This document shows positions 33,312 to 55,088 of a stretch of 64,000 nt of DNA, piece after piece. The position numbers and the translations under genes are program-made. Each line of letters begins with the position of its first letter. The stretch's first letter is position 1. The notes under the pieces were generated by a model that saw only the letters and a program-made list of their open reading frames with translations, was not told the origin of the DNA and searched no databases. Origin of the DNA: a phage. Location of the stretch: sequence record PZ445527.1; one strand, 5' to 3'.

Positions 33312-36300
33312 TTATAAGGTGCAGCCACCTGAAGAACATCCTGTAGTTTCTCCAGCTCCTCCACCATTCGCAGTGTTAAAGTTAGCATAATACCAGGTTT
33401 TTATACCATACTTAACCGCAGTCATAAAGTCACGAACTACTACTGGGCCAGGGATGATTTCATTCTCGAATTTAGAGTAATCATAATACATCTGGAAACT
33501 TGATGACTGACTCAAGAATTTTTGGTAAACGGCGTTCCACTTGATCCACTCAATACGATCTACATCATAGGCCAGTTTATAGCTCATGAGAGTATCCCAA
33601 TCAGTTGCACCTGGGGCAATTGCAATTACTTTATTCACTGCACTACCCTTGATAGATACAATCTTACGAGGTGGTTCAATAGAGTTAGTAACGCCTAACA
33701 GAACAGAGGAACTTTCTCCCGGCATCTGCGCAGTCAGAACAGAGTTACGCATACCGTATTTCAGAATGTCTGCACGCAGAGATTCCCAATCCATTTCTAG
33801 ACCTACGGATACCAGCTCATCAACAGTTTTCTTATACGTGTCGATTACCAGAATTCCTTTGGATGGTTTAGTACGATTAAACCATTCACATGCACCTTGT
33901 TCTTTAGCCAGACGTACAGAGGCTTTATGTAGGAAGTAAGACAGTTTTTCAGCTTCACGATGAATCCAGTTACGTGCTTCAACGCCTTCATAAGCCAAAC
34001 CTTCCGCCGCCATTGCACCTGCTGCGTTCATCAGACCAATACCAACATTACGACGTTTCTTAGCCGTATATTCCATAGTTGGGAACGGATAATCCTGAAT
34101 TTCAATGATGGTATCAACGAATTTCAGGAGGATGTAGCAAGTTTTCTCCCACTCAGCCAGAGATTCCATGCGTCCTAGTACAACACCACCTAAGTTACAC
34201 AGAGATACTTCACCAATATCCTCTGGCTTCATTTGATCAAGCTGCTCTTTTGTCTTATACAGCTCTGTGATATGATGGAACGGGCGTGTAGGCTGAGTAA
34301 TTTCTACACAGTTACCCGCTAAAATGCCATTAAATACACCTAAGTTTAATTTAGGTTCTGTAAAGCAATAAGTATCACTAATACGACCAGTAAACTCAAC
34401 GTTAGTTACAGTTACAAAACGGGTTGCGTCTCTATTGGGGCGTGTTAGGTTTAAGAGTTTCTCTTTATCCAAAGAGAGTCCTAAATCTTTAAGTTTCCAG
34501 AAGCCACTACTCCCCACAATAAGCCTACTAGTCTCCTTGCAGTGGTATAGTTTACTAGTACCAGTACCATCTGGTAACTCGTGGTCACCTTCTTTGCGTC
34601 CTAAAATAATCTTGCTAGTAACCCCCAATTCTAGTAACAAATCCTTCACTTTACTTAGAAAATCAGGCTCTGCCGAAGCAACCACAATACTAGGAGTTGT
34701 GCCATTTTTCTGTATGCAGCCATCTGCATCTAAATATCCCTCTAACCATTTGATACGGCTATCAATAGTATACTCTGGGCCAGGTACAAAATACTTCGGC
34801 ATTAAATCAGACTTAACAATATAGCTCAGTCTACCTGTGCTGTCCAGTAATCCACTTCCCTGAATTTCTGCGTCAATTTTATCCACTAATGGTAGTTTGC
34901 CACCTTTTTCATAGAAGTACAGCTTAGGTTCTCCATGTCTTCCATAAGTTCCATCTCCAGTGAAGAAACCGTTAGTATAAGGAGATTTTAGTACCATATT
35001 TCCATGATCTACAATAGGATTACTAAATTTAGGCATTTTCATACCTACTTGCAAGTCTACTGCTCGTACCTCTTCTAGCCCCTGTTTGAAAGAGGTACGA
35101 CGATCCTCTCTGACATATTTGGGCTGGTGGTAGAACTTATGATAAAGAGTAGATTCAATAGTAGATCCATCAGAGAATGTGATTTTTATCAACTCCTGAG
35201 CTTCCCCAGTTTTAGTAGGGATAACTGTTGACCATTCTTGTCCGTTCCAAATCTCTACTTCTTTACCAACTAAATCAATAATCTCTATGTTACCATTTTT
35301 GGTTAAAATTTTTGTTTCTGGAGCTACACAAAGGTTTGTCATACGGATTGGATCAAGGAAGTTACCGTGACGATTAGATTCCCCGATGTGGTGCGCATAC
35401 ATACGTCCTGTTTCCATTCGGATACGTAGCCAAGTATCTAGGATTTCTTTTGCAGAGACTTTAGGAGCTGCTGGAACTGTTTTTCCTTCGTGGTCGATCT
35501 TTGTAAGAGATGCCACACGTTTCTCCGCTGCCACGTAGATTTCTTCAAATTTAGCCTCGTCATCACTATAAAACGCTTCATGAACTTCTGGAGCATAGAA
35601 GTATGACATTAGCGTAATATCTTCATTTTTCAGATAACGTTTTAACAAAAGATTGTTGAAGCTCAGAGAATAATCCATCTTATCAATTTTATTCTCGTCT
35701 GTAGCACGTTGTTGCTTAACCTGCATCAACTGAATGATTTCAGGGTCAAAGTATGGATAAGACACTGTAGCAGAACCACCACGAGTTTGCTGAGTATTGG
35801 CCTTTACTGAGCGATCAATGTGTCGATAATATGGCAGTTTTCCGGAATGCGGGAATGCCCCATTTCGCACCGGATCAGCAATTGATCTGCTTTCAAGATG
35901 ATACCCGATTCCCGCTCTGGCTGCAACCATTTTGAAGACGATGTGCTCGGCGGTGTCGATTGAATCCAACGTGTCAGTGGAATCCACGAGGCAGCAACTA
36001 GCAAATCCACGGTCACTAGAGCGCAGACCAACCAGTGGCGGCGTAGGAACGTTGATTTTGTGGAGCGACATTGCGTTGTAGAGGTCGATTGCATCTAGAA
36101 TTGTCCAGTTAGGTTGAGATAACATCGCCATTGCCATACCCATGTAGGCAAACTGCGGAGTTTCATAAATTTCACCAGTGGCTATGTTGCGGCGGGAATA
36201 CTTATCAAAGAACTGCTTCAGTCCACCACTAGTAAAAAGACGGTCACGATCATGGTCGATAACCTGATTCAGAGCTTCAAATTGCTCATCGGTAATCCAT

Positions 36301-36659
36301 GCACTCATGTCTTCCCATGCACCTACGCTAACCATGTGGTCATGGAAGAAGCGCAGAGAAGGTGGTTCGAAGGAATCATAAAGGCGTTTACGCATTTGCG
36401 CAAGACGTAATTCCTTTGCTGGCACATCGTATGCTGGGTTATCTTTGATAAGGCTTTCAGCAGCCTTAATTAATGCGTCCATCAGAGTGTCGGAATCTAC
36501 AACCCCTTTAGGCAGAGTTTTTTGAGCAGCCATAGTAATGGCTGACCAACTTACATCAACTGTTTTGCAACCATACTCTGCCCAACCATTGAGTTTTTCA
36601 GGAGCAAAGTCTTCTACAGTACCGTCACGTTTAATTACTTTTTCAATGCGATGGCTCAT
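33312..36659 (-). CDS. nrdA: ribonucleotide reductase large subunit with in-frame intein
   Basis: ORF 33312..36764; start placed at MSHRIEKVIKRDG Met by comparison with NrdA N-termini; class Ia R1 motifs throughout; about 340 extra residues inserted at the NLC active-site motif. Confidence 0.9.
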   Translation of the reverse strand: MSHRIEKVIKRDGTVEDFAPEKLNGWAEYGCKTVDVSWSAITMAAQKTLPKGVVDSDTLMDALIKAAESLIKDNPAYDVPAKELRLAQMRKRLYDSFEPPSLRFFHDHMVSVGAWEDMSAWITDEQFEALNQVIDHDRDRLFTSGGLKQFFDKYSRRNIATGEIYETPQFAYMGMAMAMLSQPNWTILDAIDLYNAMSLHKINVPTPPLVGLRSSDRGFASCCLVDSTDTLDSIDTAEHIVFKMVAARAGIGYHLESRSIADPVRNGAFPHSGKLPYYRHIDRSVKANTQQTRGGSATVSYPYFDPEIIQLMQVKQQRATDENKIDKMDYSLSFNNLLLKRYLKNEDITLMSYFYAPEVHEAFYSDDEAKFEEIYVAAEKRVASLTKIDHEGKTVPAAPKVSAKEILDTWLRIRMETGRMYAHHIGESNRHGNFLDPIRMTNLCVAPETKILTKNGNIEIIDLVGKEVEIWNGQEWSTVIPTKTGEAQELIKITFSDGSTIESTLYHKFYHQPKYVREDRRTSFKQGLEEVRAVDLQVGMKMPKFSNPIVDHGNMVLKSPYTNGFFTGDGTYGRHGEPKLYFYEKGGKLPLVDKIDAEIQGSGLLDSTGRLSYIVKSDLMPKYFVPGPEYTIDSRIKWLEGYLDADGCIQKNGTTPSIVVASAEPDFLSKVKDLLLELGVTSKIILGRKEGDHELPDGTGTSKLYHCKETSRLIVGSSGFWKLKDLGLSLDKEKLLNLTRPNRDATRFVTVTNVEFTGRISDTYCFTEPKLNLGVFNGILAGNCVEITQPTRPFHHITELYKTKEQLDQMKPEDIGEVSLCNLGGVVLGRMESLAEWEKTCYILLKFVDTIIEIQDYPFPTMEYTAKKRRNVGIGLMNAAGAMAAEGLAYEGVEARNWIHREAEKLSYFLHKASVRLAKEQGACEWFNRTKPSKGILVIDTYKKTVDELVSVGLEMDWESLRADILKYGMRNSVLTAQMPGESSSVLLGVTNSIEPPRKIVSIKGSAVNKVIAIAPGATDWDTLMSYKLAYDVDRIEWIKWNAVYQKFLSQSSSFQMYYDYSKFENEIIPGPVVVRDFMTAVKYGIKTWYYANFNTANGGGAGETTGCSSGGCTL
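34311..35330 (-). mobile_element. intein with LAGLIDADG homing endonuclease inside nrdA
   Basis: Insert begins with Cys (CVAPET), ends GILAGN followed by +1 Cys of extein NL-CVEITQP; contains GFFTGDGTYG and LEGYLDADGC motifs. Confidence 0.8.
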
Positions 36660-36803
36660 TTGGTTTTCCTTTTTATAGTTATCAGGATTTAAGGAATATT
36701 CTACATTATTATTGGTCATTAGGCAAATAAAATTTTCTGATAGAAAAGGCCCGAGTATTTTCATACCCAGGCCCTCTGTGTTGTCAGTCTAGTTTTTGGC
36801 CAC

Positions 36804-37002: not shown

Positions 37003-37755
37003 TTACACCTTCCCCATGTCTTTAAAAATATCGTAGAATGCTTTAGACTCAGCAGAACGAACGTTATCAATTAATTCGATCATTGAGAATGGAGCATTTT
37101 CATATTTCTCATAAACTTCCATAAGAAGTGCTAGACCTGAGTCACCTTTAATGTCTTTCTGAGCTATATCCCCGCAGATAATCAAACGGCAGTCTTGTCC
37201 TACACGAGTTAGGAGACAAACCATTGCCTCAACGGAAATATTCTGAGCTTCATCGACAATTACATAGGAGTTGTTGAAAGTTCTGCCACGAGCATGTTCT
37301 ATAGCCAAAAATTTAATTTTCTGACGTTCGACATATCCCTTATAGGCATGATCACCGATGGCCCATTTCATACCATCAGCTATTGGCTCCAACCAAGGCT
37401 CTAGCTTTTCGGCTAGATCACCAGGAAGCATACCAAGAGACTTACCTAGAGGTTCATTAGGACGTACGAGAATCACTTGCTCAATATCTGAGTGAATGTC
37501 TACGAGTTCCTGAGCTGCAAGAACGGACGGAATAAAGGTTTTACCAGTACCTGGCTCACCGATACCCACAGTCACTGTGTTGTTCTTGATCATATTGATA
37601 TATGATTTTTGCTCGCGGTTTTTACCTACTAGGGATTTAGCAACTGGGTTAGCGTAATCATTAGAAAAATCAGCCTGAATTACGTTATTCTCATATTTGT
37701 TGCCACGCTTTCTTGAACCATTGCGGTTCTCTCTTTTTTGACGTGCTTTTCCCAT
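37003..37755 (-). CDS. phoH: PhoH-like ATPase
   Basis: Walker A GEPGTGKT and VIVDEAQN Walker B; start at MGKARQ Met after AGGAGTG RBS. Confidence 0.85.
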   Translation of the reverse strand: MGKARQKRENRNGSRKRGNKYENNVIQADFSNDYANPVAKSLVGKNREQKSYINMIKNNTVTVGIGEPGTGKTFIPSVLAAQELVDIHSDIEQVILVRPNEPLGKSLGMLPGDLAEKLEPWLEPIADGMKWAIGDHAYKGYVERQKIKFLAIEHARGRTFNNSYVIVDEAQNISVEAMVCLLTRVGQDCRLIICGDIAQKDIKGDSGLALLMEVYEKYENAPFSMIELIDNVRSAESKAFYDIFKDMGKV

Positions 37756-37830
37756 AAATAACACTCCTATAGTGTACTTCGCTTCTAACAGAGGATCAAC
37801 AAAAGATCTTGTTTATCAACTTACAAATAT

Positions 37831-37859
37831 ATTATACCAGTATATACAGTAAAAAGCAA
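37831..37859 (-). promoter_or_regulatory. sigma70-type promoter upstream of phoH
   Basis: TTGCTT, 17 nt spacer, TATAAT. Confidence 0.6.
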
Positions 37860-38030
37860 CTACAATTTTAAATAAGCCTATGATATTGCATTTAAATAAA
37901 AAATTTGCTTGCTTATAGAGGTAGAAATATGATACTAGATAATCATTTATTTATATGTAAAAATACTATGCTGTATAGCATCAATAAAAATTGATAAAAA
38001 TCAAAAGTCAAATAGTATTAGAAAAATGTA
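37860..38030. promoter_or_regulatory. AT-rich divergent intergenic region with palindromes at the strand switch
   Basis: No ORF; AT-rich; contains palindrome ATGCTGTATAGCAT; lies between outward-facing promoters. Confidence 0.35.
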
Positions 38031-38031
38031 G

Positions 38032-38060
38032 TTGACGTATGGGGTGGAATTATGTATAAT
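38032..38060 (+). promoter_or_regulatory. sigma70 promoter
   Basis: TTGACG, 17 nt spacer, TATAAT, then AAGGAG RBS and ATG at 38082. Confidence 0.7.
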
Positions 38061-38081
38061 ATGTGAATTAAGGAGAATTTA

Positions 38082-38747
38082 ATGGTAAGAAAGAAAATAA
38101 CTACAGAAGATGTGAACTTAGCACTTGCTCCCAGAGGAATAATTATGCTAAGCACGTATATATCAGCTAAATCCAATGCTATATTTAAGTGCTCTAATGG
38201 GCATAGTTGGGAGGCTAGAGTAGATAATGTAAAAGGTGGGAGAGGTTGCCCTTATTGTGCTAGTCGTACTTTAGATCTTAAAGAGGTAAATGAATCCTTA
38301 GCTGCTCGTGGAATAAAGATGGAAGGTAAATACATCAATTCTAAGAGTAAAATTATGTTCAGCTGTGAGAATGATCATAGGTGGGAGTCTACCCTTGATA
38401 GTGTTAGAAATCATAATTCTGGTTGTCCTATATGTTTATTAGAGAAGGATAATTATCCTACTAACGTATATATTTTAGTAAGTAGTATGGGAACCAAAAT
38501 AGGGATGTCTAGCAGAACTAAAGATAGACTCAGAGATATTAAAACTTCTTCTAACATACATGATTTAAAAATATTTAAGGAATATAGCTTTTCAGATAGA
38601 TCAAAAGCTGTGCGTATTGAAAGAGAAGCCCATTTACAGTTTAAGGAATATAATTGTCAGTACAAAGATTTTGATGGTGCTACAGAATTTTTTAGTATTG
38701 AGCCAGAAGTAGTAGCAAGGTTTATTGAGGAAATAATTAATGAATAA
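38082..38747 (+). CDS. zinc-ribbon plus T5orf172/GIY-YIG-like nuclease-domain protein (putative homing endonuclease)
   Basis: 221 aa; two CxxGHxW...CPxC zinc-ribbon repeats and C-terminal region VYILVSS...RLRDIKTS...REAHLQFKEY resembling the T5orf172 domain. Confidence 0.55.
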   Translation: MVRKKITTEDVNLALAPRGIIMLSTYISAKSNAIFKCSNGHSWEARVDNVKGGRGCPYCASRTLDLKEVNESLAARGIKMEGKYINSKSKIMFSCENDHRWESTLDSVRNHNSGCPICLLEKDNYPTNVYILVSSMGTKIGMSSRTKDRLRDIKTSSNIHDLKIFKEYSFSDRSKAVRIEREAHLQFKEYNCQYKDFDGATEFFSIEPEVVARFIEEIINE

Positions 38748-40587
38748 AGATGAATTGATTAGAAACTGCAAAGAAATTATTGAGGGTTCTGCTGATGAAG
38801 AGCTTCTCTTTAATAATGCGAATAAACCCTCTGAGCGTTTCCCTACACAAAGGGATATGCTTGCAGGGGAATTGAGTAAATATCTGATTCTAGAAGAAAT
38901 GCCAATTCAGATTCGAAATGCTCATATGATTGGAGATATTCATTTCCATGATGCTGACTATGCTGCATTAGGCATGACTAACTGTTGCCTAGTAGCCCTG
39001 GAAGATATGTTGAAAAATGGTATGAAAGTTGGTAATGCTGAAATTAGTACACCAAATTCTATTACTACTGCGGCGGCTATTACTGCTCAGATTATCACTC
39101 AGGTTAGCTCCCATCAGTATGGTGGTACTTCTGTAGATCGCCTTGATGAAGTATTAGCCCCTTATGTTCGTAAGTCCTATGATAAAAATCATGCGTTTGC
39201 AAAACGTTGGACTAAGGATGAAGCTAAAGCATCTGTAATGGCTACGGAGATGACTGAAAAAGAAGTCTATGACGCTTGCCAGGGTTTAGAATATGAAATC
39301 AATACCATGTTCAACTCTAACGGTCAGAGTCCATTTATTACCTTTGGTTTTGGTCTAGGAACTTCTTGGGAAGCACGTCTAGTACAGAAAGCAATACTGA
39401 AAGTACGCATGGATGGTTTAGGTATCAATAAACGTACAGCTATCTTCCCGAAACTGGTATTTGTACTTCGTGATGGCGTAAATATGAAACCAGGGGATGT
39501 TAATTATGACATCAAGAAGTTAGCTATGAAATGTACTGCTGAACGTATGTATCCAGATTATATCAGCTATGATAAGGTTGTGGAAGTTACTGGAGACTAT
39601 AAAGTTTCTATGGGCTGCCGTTCATTCCTAGCTGCTGCAGAAGATGGTGAAACTGCCGGTCGTAATAACTTAGGTGTTGTTTCTGTAAACTTGCCTAGAA
39701 TTGCTATCGAAGCTGAAGGAAATATTGACCTATTCTTTGATTTGCTTGAGCTACGTGTAGATACAGCATTAAAAGCGTTGGAGTGGAGAGTTGATCGCTT
39801 AAAATACATTCAAGCTAAAGCTGCACCCATCCTCTATATGTCAGGAGCCTTTGGATTACGCTTAGGGCCTGATGAATATGTATTCGATCATTTCTATAAC
39901 CGTGCTTCTGTATCTCTAGGGTATATTGGTTGCCATGAAATGCTACAGTTCATGTTTGGCAAAGATGTAGACACAATGTCCGAGACCTGCATCAAGTTTG
40001 TTCAGCGTGTATTGCAGTACATGCGGGATAGAGTCGATCAGAAGAAGGAAGAAACTAAGTTAGGTTATAGCCTGTATGCTACACCATCAGAGTCCCTATG
40101 TGATCGCTTTTGTCGTCTAGACCGTGAATATTTCCCGGAGCATGAAGATATTCTGTCCAAAGGATACTACACTAACTCTCACCACCTTGATGTGGAACGT
40201 AAAGTTGCCCCTAACGTGAAATTTGATTATGAATCTAACTTTACTCCGATTGCTTCTGGTGGGTGTATCTCTTATGTAGAACTACCAGATATGAAACGAT
40301 TCCCGGATGCACTGGAATGGGTTATTAATTATGCTGCTAGTAAGGTTCATTACTTCGGTATTAATACTCCAGTGGATTCCTGTGGTAAATGTGGATTCTT
40401 AGGTGAAACAGTAGCATCCGAAGATGGATTCAAGTGCCCTATCTGTGGTAATCATGACCCTGAAACTCTTGAAGTAACTCGTCGAGTTTGTGGGTATCTT
40501 GGAAATCCAGGTGCTCGTCCGTTTAACCCAGGAAAACAACATGAGGTTATGGGCAGGGTGAAACATCAGGATATTCGAGCTAAATAA
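38740..40587 (+). CDS. nrdD: anaerobic ribonucleoside-triphosphate reductase (class III)
   Basis: 615 aa; C-terminal glycyl-radical motif RVCGYLG; size similar to phage NrdD. Confidence 0.85.
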   Translation: MNKDELIRNCKEIIEGSADEELLFNNANKPSERFPTQRDMLAGELSKYLILEEMPIQIRNAHMIGDIHFHDADYAALGMTNCCLVALEDMLKNGMKVGNAEISTPNSITTAAAITAQIITQVSSHQYGGTSVDRLDEVLAPYVRKSYDKNHAFAKRWTKDEAKASVMATEMTEKEVYDACQGLEYEINTMFNSNGQSPFITFGFGLGTSWEARLVQKAILKVRMDGLGINKRTAIFPKLVFVLRDGVNMKPGDVNYDIKKLAMKCTAERMYPDYISYDKVVEVTGDYKVSMGCRSFLAAAEDGETAGRNNLGVVSVNLPRIAIEAEGNIDLFFDLLELRVDTALKALEWRVDRLKYIQAKAAPILYMSGAFGLRLGPDEYVFDHFYNRASVSLGYIGCHEMLQFMFGKDVDTMSETCIKFVQRVLQYMRDRVDQKKEETKLGYSLYATPSESLCDRFCRLDREYFPEHEDILSKGYYTNSHHLDVERKVAPNVKFDYESNFTPIASGGCISYVELPDMKRFPDALEWVINYAASKVHYFGINTPVDSCGKCGFLGETVASEDGFKCPICGNHDPETLEVTRRVCGYLGNPGARPFNPGKQHEVMGRVKHQDIRAK

Positions 40588-53615: not shown

Positions 53616-55088
53616 ATGACCTTGTTTAACGTGCAAGCTGTAGTGTTGAAGATGCTTCTAGCTTCCGAACAGAAGCAAATAGCATTGGAAACATTCTCAA
53701 AACTGCATAAAGATCATTTTAATGACGCTTTCTCCTCAATTTACCAAGCCGTCCAGAATTATTATAAAAAATATAACGCAATGCCGTCCATTGACGCACT
53801 TATGCTTGAGGCCAATAGGAACGCCCGCCTTTCTCAAGCTCTAGTCGTCTTAGCTAACACTCAAATTCCAGAAGTTAGCATGGAACAGGCACTTGAAGTC
53901 CTAGAGGCCGAGTATACACAGGATTTATTCCTGAAGCTTCTAGAAACAGACGTGCTTCAAGATTTAACAATGCTGGATCAGGGAGAAATTCTTAACCGAG
54001 TTGCCTCCCTTCACTTAAAATTAGAAGAGAAAGTAACGAATACTGGAAAAGTATTCAACGCAGATAACATGCGTATTTTCCAGAGAGAAGAAGATACCAA
54101 ACTGAACTTAATCGCTCTTGGTATTTGTAATGAGTTCGACGCTCAAATTGGTTTAGCTCGCACAGAAACGTTACTGCTTGGTGGTTGGCGTGGTACTGGT
54201 AAATCCATTATCTGTTCAAACATACAGGTTCAGCAATATTTGAATGGAGATATTGCTCCATACTTCTCAATTGAGATGAAAGAACATGAAGTATTTAGAC
54301 GTAATCTAGCCATGTTAGCTGGTGTATCAGCACTAGCAATGCGTAATAATACTCTAGAAGGCGCAGCTCTGTTGAGATTAGCCAGAACTAGAGCTAGGAT
54401 GTTTAATGGTGGTGAAGAGCTTTTCGATAACTTCGTTAAACAGTACACAATGGCTAAGATGAGTGATTTCTACGATATGGAAAGTAAGCTAATAGAAGGA
54501 TATGAGCTACATACTCCTATGATTATTGTTTATGATCCTGAGCTGTCTATTACAACAGTTGACGTAGAATTAAATAAATTAGTTGCTAGATATGGGGATA
54601 AAGTTACAGTAGCTTTACTGGACTATATTAACCAAACCCGACTTCCAGACTCTAAAACCATTGATATGTATGACTGGAAAGAACAGATGGTTGTTAGCTC
54701 GTCTTTCAAATCTATCTGCCAGAAACATAACGTGGCTGGTGTAGCCCCTTACCAGATTGATCAAGATGGTAGAACACGTATGTCAAAGGGGATTCTTGAT
54801 TCCGCAGACATGGCTGCTAATCTTAATGCTGCAAAAGCTGATAATGGTCAAGGTGCTATTATGTTTGACTTCGTTAAGACTCGTTCTTCTGATAGCGTGA
54901 AGTTTATGCCTAAAATGAACTGGGAAACCCTACGGATGGATAACACTACCAACCTAGCAATGGAAGATATATCTCAAATGGAAGCTGAGTTCGTTATCCC
55001 TATTGAGAAGGATAAGCCGGCTCAATCTAAACGTGCTAAGAAAGACAAAGCTGAAAATTCAACAGGTGAACAGGCCAGCGATATATGA
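53616..55088 (+). CDS. DnaB-like replicative helicase
   Basis: ORF 53556..55088; start at MTLFNVQ Met 4 nt after AAGGAG; Walker A GWRGTGKS. Confidence 0.8.
   Translation: MTLFNVQAVVLKMLLASEQKQIALETFSKLHKDHFNDAFSSIYQAVQNYYKKYNAMPSIDALMLEANRNARLSQALVVLANTQIPEVSMEQALEVLEAEYTQDLFLKLLETDVLQDLTMLDQGEILNRVASLHLKLEEKVTNTGKVFNADNMRIFQREEDTKLNLIALGICNEFDAQIGLARTETLLLGGWRGTGKSIICSNIQVQQYLNGDIAPYFSIEMKEHEVFRRNLAMLAGVSALAMRNNTLEGAALLRLARTRARMFNGGEELFDNFVKQYTMAKMSDFYDMESKLIEGYELHTPMIIVYDPELSITTVDVELNKLVARYGDKVTVALLDYINQTRLPDSKTIDMYDWKEQMVVSSSFKSICQKHNVAGVAPYQIDQDGRTRMSKGILDSADMAANLNAAKADNGQGAIMFDFVKTRSSDSVKFMPKMNWETLRMDNTTNLAMEDISQMEAEFVIPIEKDKPAQSKRAKKDKAENSTGEQASDI

Follow-up and report, generated by a model that had tools for sequence, protein, structure and literature searches.

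The stretch of DNA analysed here (the window, 64,000 nucleotides of a T5-like phage) contains, around positions 37860 to 38060, a very AT-rich region at the point where gene orientation changes. A preliminary description of the sequence drew attention to this composition, to a palindrome and to several A-tracts, and pointed to regulator binding or replication initiation as typical uses of such divergent promoter zones. The question raised by the locus is which of these features carries a function. The region is very probably a non-coding control zone of a T5-like phage, flanked by two sigma-70 early promoters that face outward. RNA polymerase would start leftward at one of them (P_phoH, predicted start near 37824) to transcribe phoH and the minus-strand early genes, and rightward at the other (P_right, predicted start near 38067) to transcribe a T5orf172-type gene and nrdD; a third and weaker rightward promoter-like element, P_mid, lies within the AT-rich DNA and may be active. 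The left ~95 nt would be selected across T5-like phages, with a putative UP-element function, and the right ~75 nt would constitute a hypervariable leader, found together with a putative homing-endonuclease gene and subject to exchange among phages. The observations presented here show where the promoter elements lie, how they score and how far they are conserved, along with the mosaic make-up of the locus and the statistics of the palindrome.

The window belongs to a member of the Demerecviridae, a T5-like phage that falls in Tequintavirus or close to that genus. A BLAST query with positions 37700-38150 matched 441 phage records, nearly all of them from Escherichia/Salmonella T5-like phages; the gap was aligned for about 35 genomes, and nucleotide diversity was calculated from 28 T5-like genomes. 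The start of phoH was set at the ATG at 37755, following the annotations of T5, NR01 and DT57C, and the homologous coding sequence is 753 nt long in T5, NR01, DT57C and S114. On the other side of the gap, the T5orf172-type gene (38082-38747) is followed by nrdD, their ends overlapping (Table 1). The nrdD gene of the window is 99% identical to the T5-type allele and 60% identical to the NR01/DT57C-type allele, and T5-like phages in general carry one of these two alleles (~60% protein identity). Farther to the left, nrdA (33312-36764, minus strand) encodes 1150 aa, whereas the proteins in the records of T5, NR01 and DT57C have ~776-811 aa; its ribonucleotide reductase barrel domain is split by a LAGLIDADG_3 domain (aa 672-758), and the insertion looks like an intein with a homing endonuclease.

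Table 1. Features of the phoH/nrdD gap and its flanks, and versions of the right-half segment among T5-like phages (window coordinates; a dot marks features assigned to neither strand)
Feature	Coordinates	Strand	Basis or remark
phoH (PhoH-like ATPase) CDS	37003..37755	-	Pfam PhoH, E=1e-61
phoH 5' untranslated leader, RBS GGAG	37756..37824	-	start near 37824 predicted from -10 position
P_phoH core: TTGCTT (37859-37854), 17 nt, TATAAT (37836-37831), ATATT discriminator	37831..37859	-	matrix, homology
Conserved A/T block, about -37 to -81 of P_phoH	37861..37905	.	diversity 4.5-fold below synonymous sites
P_mid, candidate weak promoter: TTGCTT (37909-37914), 16 nt, GATACT (37931-37936)	37909..37936	+	matrix, conservation
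27-nt element TATGATACTAGATAATCATTTATTTAT, left border of variable segment	37928..37954	+	27/27 identical in My1
Variable AT-rich leader with five A4-A5 tracts; upstream zone of P_right	37956..38031	.	BLAST, alignments
Palindrome ATGCTGTATAGCAT (ATGCT-GTAT-AGCAT)	37968..37981	.	judged a chance feature
P_right: TTGACG (38032-38037), 17 nt, TATAAT (38055-38060)	38032..38060	+	11/12 consensus positions
T5orf172-family gene, 221 aa	38082..38747	+	Pfam DUF4379, MUG113, T5orf172, CapR
nrdD, anaerobic ribonucleotide reductase, T5-type allele	38740..40587	+	Pfam NRDD, E=5e-172
Right-half version: T5-type empty site, with second leftward promoter and G+C-rich segment			
Right-half version: DT57C-type empty site			
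Right-half versions: three T5orf172-type genes of 221-223, 222 and 267-301 aa			loci L007, L016, L019, L021
Right-half version: HNH endonuclease gene on the opposite strand, phage SSP1			loci L015/L004

In composition, the region is extreme for this phage. Its G+C content is 22.9% between 37860 and 38060, compared with 38.7% for the whole window, and 24.9% across the ORF-free gap (37765-38081). The lowest 200-nt G+C values of the window begin at 37801-37841, and by nearest-neighbour energy no other 200 nt of the 64 kb are less stable than this stretch. The preliminary description had placed an AT-rich zone of about 170 nt between a phoH promoter on the minus strand and a promoter of the gene at 38082 on the plus strand. 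Both promoter positions are correct, the G+C content of the zone is the lowest of the window, 172 nt separate the -35 hexamers of the leftward and rightward promoters, and the reading of the locus as a divergent promoter zone of a T5-like phage is supported. Gene orientation switches only once in the window, at this site: ORFs and all strong promoters to its left lie on the minus strand, those to its right on the plus strand. The cumulative GC skew has a sharp minimum at 37878.

Troughs in G+C accompany promoters elsewhere in the window as well: 12 of the 15 deepest 100-nt troughs lie no more than 60 nt from the -35 hexamer of a strong promoter, and the 25 nt upstream of the -35 have a mean G+C of 26% over the 32 strong promoters. 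The gap is AT-rich because it is non-coding, contains two A/T-rich UP-element-like zones and has P_mid inside it. Farther upstream (-61 to -105), DNA of the other 30 strong promoters has a G+C of 38%, equal to the background, and a trough of 170 nt is therefore longer than promoters alone need. This is the only place in the window where the upstream zones of two promoters abut in non-coding DNA, and from the far-upstream value found elsewhere it follows that the length of the trough is specific to the back-to-back arrangement. Altogether, the composition trough is real, and it is explained by back-to-back T5 early promoters of a kind already annotated in T5.

To score promoters, a matrix was derived from eight early promoters that lie at other places in the T5 genome, among them P-N25, P-N26 and P-K28a/b. 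Scanning of the window gave 32 strong sites (score of at least 18), separated by a clear gap from the next ones (13.6 or less), and each of the 32 points the same way as the genes, leftward (minus strand) before 37.9 kb and rightward (plus strand) beyond it. P_phoH has the top score of the window (37.7), and its hexamers agree with the T5 early pattern of a TTGCTT or TTGACA -35, a spacer of 17+/-1 nt and a TATAAT -10. It reads ...tttaaaattgtagTTGCTT...TATAATATATTtg, with both of the features sought in an early promoter, an A-rich block upstream of the -35 and an ATATT discriminator, the latter being common among T5 early promoters (PMC7472727). P_right scores 25.8 and ranks 23rd of the 32; its hexamers and the A-rich block agaaaaatgtag that precedes its -35 are those expected of an early promoter, and its discriminator is ATGTG instead of ATATT. 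The nrdD promoter of T5 itself is also without ATATT, having AGTAG at this place. The nrdD promoter annotated in T5, S114 and PR1 lies where P_right does, and a TTGAC...TATAAT promoter is kept there in T5-like phages, in My1, in DevonBitter and in PR1; a Vibrio T5-like phage was aligned with P_right over the -10 only.

The same arrangement is found in existing records and in more distant relatives. Two leftward promoters and one rightward promoter are annotated in the homologous gap of the T5 GenBank record (AY543070), and promoters are annotated there in the S114 and PR1 records too. T5-like phages of Pectobacterium, Klebsiella and Providencia retain the divergent phoH/nrdD layout, and the Vibrio T5-like phage has promoter-like sequence upstream of phoH and no annotated nrdD beside it. 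A second leftward promoter of the T5 kind was not found in the window, where all minus-strand sites in 37900-38030 score 8 or less, and no terminators were found in the gap. Searches of the literature returned no usable transcription-start map or transcript data for the locus.

Within the AT-rich DNA, P_mid combines a good upstream half with a poor downstream one. Its -35/UP part (AAAAAATTTGC-TTGCTT) scores 13.5, equal to that of P_right, in a layout like that of P-N25, and its -10 scores about 0, for a total of 11.6-13.6 that falls just below the gap separating the strong promoters. The element can alternatively be read as TTGCTT (37905-37910), 17 nt and TATGAT (37928-37933). Across T5-like phages the -35 is invariant, the -10 and the next bases are largely conserved, and the spacer is variable; some relatives have TG directly upstream of the -10 hexamer, making it an extended -10. 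Pectobacterium phage My1 has the same geometry with a perfect TTGACA -35, and in T5, where the -10 is degraded, P_mid is unannotated. At P_phoH, the hexamers are likewise invariant and the spacer variable across 28 genomes. Conserved hexamers around variable spacers at both P_phoH and P_mid are the pattern expected of promoters.

The sequence from the phoH start to ~37955 is common to all Tequintavirus and Epseptimavirus genomes examined, and its diversity varies strongly along its length: 0.10 at phoH third codon positions, 0.005 in the phoH 5' leader, 0.023 in the upstream block 37861-37905 and 0.16 in the P_mid spacer. The block 37861-37905 consists of the UP-element-like zone AATTTTAAAT and far-upstream DNA, and it is nearly invariant; its right end, AAAAAATTT, also serves as the A-rich zone in front of the P_mid -35. 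Judged from these alignments, purifying selection acts on the left ~95 nt (37861-37955) throughout the T5-like phages. At its right end, the 27-nt element TATGATACTAGATAATCATTTATTTAT is shared 27/27 with My1, although the My1 PhoH is only 67% identical and the flanks differ. Other copies of TATGATACTAGATAATCATTTATTTAT were not found: it occurs once per T5-like genome, always at the phoH locus and only in T5-like phages. It is absent from Klebsiella phage DevonBitter, Providencia phage PR1 and the Vibrio T5-like phage, and DevonBitter and PR1 keep divergent phoH/nrdD promoters without it. The 27-nt element is conserved beyond the obvious need of a weak promoter and could be a protein-binding site.

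Several other candidate functions for this DNA were considered and set aside. A Fur box was suggested by GATAATCATT inside the 27-nt element; with at least ~13/19 matches to GATAATGATAATCATTATC taken as the threshold, the best match in the gap was 11/19, compared with a mean maximum of 11.9 in shuffles. Checking of the CRP, LexA and IHF consensus sequences by eye gave half-sites only, at variable positions. A mini-ORF starting at 37929 (MILDNHLFI..., with GAGG 7 nt upstream) has invariant third positions and varying first positions, and has no promoter upstream. For structured RNA, Rfam gave just one sub-threshold match, to the DnaX ribosomal frameshifting element, within phoH (37713-37758, minus strand; 19.6 bits, where the gathering score is 35; E=0.077), and this match at the phoH start is most likely due to chance. 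The phoH leader contains an imperfect 9-bp hairpin (37794-37817, minus strand; GAUAAACAA-GAUCUU-UUGUUGAUC), and DevonBitter has a different small hairpin (GGUC...GACC) at this position. The folding energy of the phoH leader was no better than that of shuffles (z=0.04), and the fold of the putative P_mid leader has a z of -1.7.

To the right of the 27-nt element, conservation stops. Homology to 420 of the 441 records ends at about 37948-37968, and the right-half version present in the window (37951-38090) occurs in only 21 of them. In all records with an annotation under the match or examined individually, this leader adjoins a T5orf172-type gene of 221-223 aa. At least five unrelated versions of the right-half segment exist among T5-like phages (Table 1), and the site immediately before nrdD is a hot spot, holding endonuclease-type genes in some phages and empty in others; the three T5orf172 alleles found there carry two or three zinc-finger modules. 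The 221-aa protein of the window has two treble-clef zinc fingers and a T5orf172/MUG113 domain, and is a putative free-standing homing endonuclease whose gene appears to have been inserted between P_right and nrdD. The segment shows two properties expected of an endonuclease cassette, a nuclease-family domain and presence/absence, with allelic replacement, at one site.

The borders of this segment point to its mobility. Among phages, the T5orf172 segment is found next to either of two left-flank alleles and, at its other end, next to either of two nrdD alleles sharing only 60% identity; the right junction falls in nrdD codons 1-5 (~38745-38757). In the window, an NR01-type T5orf172 segment is joined to a T5-type nrdD at 38740-38757, as seen in comparison with loci L001, L039 and L005. 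The left flank is of the T5/DT57C type, the T5orf172 segment of the NR01 type and nrdD of the T5 type, and the locus is therefore a three-way mosaic. T5-like genomes are reported to differ locally above all through homing endonuclease genes (PMC10644984), a pattern with which the mosaic junctions and the T5orf172/MUG113 protein agree.

The right half of the gap also differs between phages in a short, G+C-rich segment of the CGCG type, often palindromic, that is found in T5 (L005, 1777-1851), My1 (L031) and three further loci (L036-L038). Its carriers are T5, Epseptimavirus, My1 and the Klebsiella, Providencia and Vibrio relatives, with sequences such as CGCGCGTGCGCG and CGCGCATCATGCGCG. It corresponds roughly to positions 37955-37990 of the window and lies directly after a TATAAT-like hexamer, which in T5 belongs to the annotated distal leftward promoter; as a G+C-rich discriminator it recalls those of stringently controlled promoters. 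The window and the NR01-type and DT57C-type phages have lost this segment.

The palindrome lies in this variable half. It exists where the preliminary description had located it, as a single occurrence of ATGCTGTATAGCAT at 37968-37981 with 5-bp arms and a 4-nt spacer, and hairpins of exactly this geometry number 112 in the window. Compared with 1000 dinucleotide shuffles of the gap, neither the number of hairpins (arms of 5 bp or more, loops of up to 8 nt; 9 against 7.5 +/- 3.5 expected, P=0.34) nor the longest hairpin arm (P=0.83) is unusual. The arm motif has 4 matches against 3.0 expected; a looser search allowing up to 3 mismatches gave 20 against 8.4 expected, the closest of which, for example ATTCTGTATAATAT, are the -10 regions of other promoters. 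The palindrome is present in 21 of the 441 related records, and in an alignment of five relatives phage AZ23 has AACGT instead of AGCAT in the right arm with the left arm unchanged; there is therefore no covariation between the arms. A special role for the palindrome is not supported, in view of this lack of conservation, which the preliminary description had listed among the refuting outcomes, of the uncompensated change in AZ23, of the ordinary hairpin statistics and of a motif that does not recur elsewhere in the window. Nor is curvature driven by A-tracts supported: the gap has 9 A/T tracts of 4 nt or more where its composition predicts 6.6 (P=0.15), and curvature, calculated with approximate wedge-model parameters, reaches a local maximum at the 96.5th percentile, outside the 15 strongest peaks of the window. 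The palindrome is without a function that the data support, and is a chance feature of an exchangeable, endonuclease-linked leader.

Three other explanations of the region have to be weighed against that of back-to-back early promoters with a variable leader. It is hardly credible that the palindrome serves as an operator for a dimeric phage or host regulator of one or both promoters. It does sit between two promoters, and the local 41 nt (37955-37995), folded as DNA into three small hairpins of only -4.3 kcal/mol, do so slightly better than shuffles (z=-2.2; 6 of 200 shuffles equal). However, its arms of just 5 bp, in a gap where hairpins are not in excess, are absent from most related records and altered at two positions in AZ23, and their motif is not repeated in the window beyond expectation, the loose matches being -10 regions. 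The position would also be unusual for a repressor (the P_right -35 begins 51 nt downstream of it, and the P_phoH -35 is 109 nt away), the Fur box failed, and a complete LexA or CRP site was not found by eye. Less improbable, and still unlikely, is that the 27-nt element together with the sharp break in homology marks a target or crossover site for exchange of the endonuclease-linked segment, and that the element is conserved through that role. All variants diverge within ~10 nt of 37950, the same T5orf172 segment is combined with two left-flank alleles and with two nrdD alleles of 60% identity, and My1 shares the 27-mer as an isolated identical patch, all of which speaks for this reading. Co-conversion tracts of homing endonucleases usually end at scattered points and not at one sharp border, whereas here a single sharp border is seen; in addition, a cleavage site is putative, and the conservation pattern of the 27-mer also fits a promoter. 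This reading is compatible with the back-to-back promoter explanation.

The remaining alternative is an internal origin of replication, in which the AT-rich stretch would act as a DNA-unwinding element and a transcript from P_mid or P_right might provide the primer for initiation. This seems very unlikely, and its more specific form, in which the strand switch is the internal origin of T5 and P_mid with the 27-nt element fires into the AT-rich DNA to give a transcript that primes bidirectional replication, is if anything a little less probable still. In its favour, the region is the least stable and most AT-rich of the 64 kb, as an unwinding element would be, the sharp GC-skew minimum at 37878 coincides with the sole strand switch, and ~90 nt of AT-rich DNA free of ORFs come after a promoter-like element. 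Electron microscopy reportedly showed bidirectional origins inside the T5 genome (Bourguignon 1976, as cited in PMC3632103), and in the T5-like phage phiLLS an origin was proposed within the early-gene region on the basis of GC skew (PMC5519627). By a rough estimate, the origin proposed for phiLLS would lie a few kb from the homologous site. However, GC skew and AT-richness are here fully confounded with gene orientation and with the upstream zones of promoters. Sites at which an initiator might bind were not found, either as iterons (one weak 27-nt repeat family of 66-74% identity was the only one) or as a cluster of DnaA boxes (93 matches in the window against 82 expected, and 2 one-mismatch matches in the gap). 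An origin should be conserved, yet unrelated sequence replaces the right half in 420 of the 441 records, and P_mid and the 27-nt element are missing in Sugarlandvirus, Priunavirus and a Vibrio relative. Moreover, recombitron editing at several T5 sites showed one strand preference, read as dominant unidirectional replication from one genome end (PMC10055335), which argues against a dominant central bidirectional origin. If it were true, the origin reading would explain why the gene blocks diverge and the GC skew turns exactly here, and it would fill a real gap, because literature searches found no sequence-defined or mapped T5 origin.

For further work on the control zone between the two early promoters, the palindrome can be dropped as a lead, and the conserved promoter-like segment 37909-37954 is the only part of the gap that may repay experiment. 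The distinction between a constrained left half and an exchangeable right half is useful for the engineering of T5-like phages and for the choice of neutral insertion sites. As a discovery the locus carries little weight, because the divergent phoH/nrdD promoters are already annotated and mosaicism linked to homing endonucleases is well described.

Among known systems, the closest are the early promoters of T5 (P-N25, P-N26 and P-K28a/b class) and the annotated pair of divergent phoH/nrdD promoters of T5 itself (AY543070, 53638-53958). P_phoH is almost base-for-base alike in the two phages (T5 53638-53712), with an A-rich block AAAATTGTAG, TTGCTT, 17 nt, TATAAT and ATATT, and P_right occupies the position of the T5 nrdD promoter with the same TTGAC...TATAAT hexamers. 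The P_right spacer and discriminator differ from those of T5 (ATGTG in the window, not the early-type ATATT), T5 has a distal second leftward promoter followed by a G+C-rich segment, whereas the window is without both, and in the window a T5orf172 gene stands between P_right and nrdD. The free-standing homing endonuclease genes of T5-like phages (HNH F-Tfl enzymes, and T5orf172/GIY-YIG-like genes) show the same presence/absence polymorphism at a single intergenic site flanked by conserved genes, with unrelated endonuclease-type genes at that site and mosaic flanks, as here; the feature studied in this case is, however, the leader DNA, and the nuclease role of the adjoining protein is putative. 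The primary origin of T7 and oriF and oriG of T4 are phage origins that combine a promoter with an unwinding element. They resemble the present locus in having a promoter-like element followed by ORF-free, AT-rich intergenic DNA, but the AT-rich segment downstream of P_mid is not conserved.
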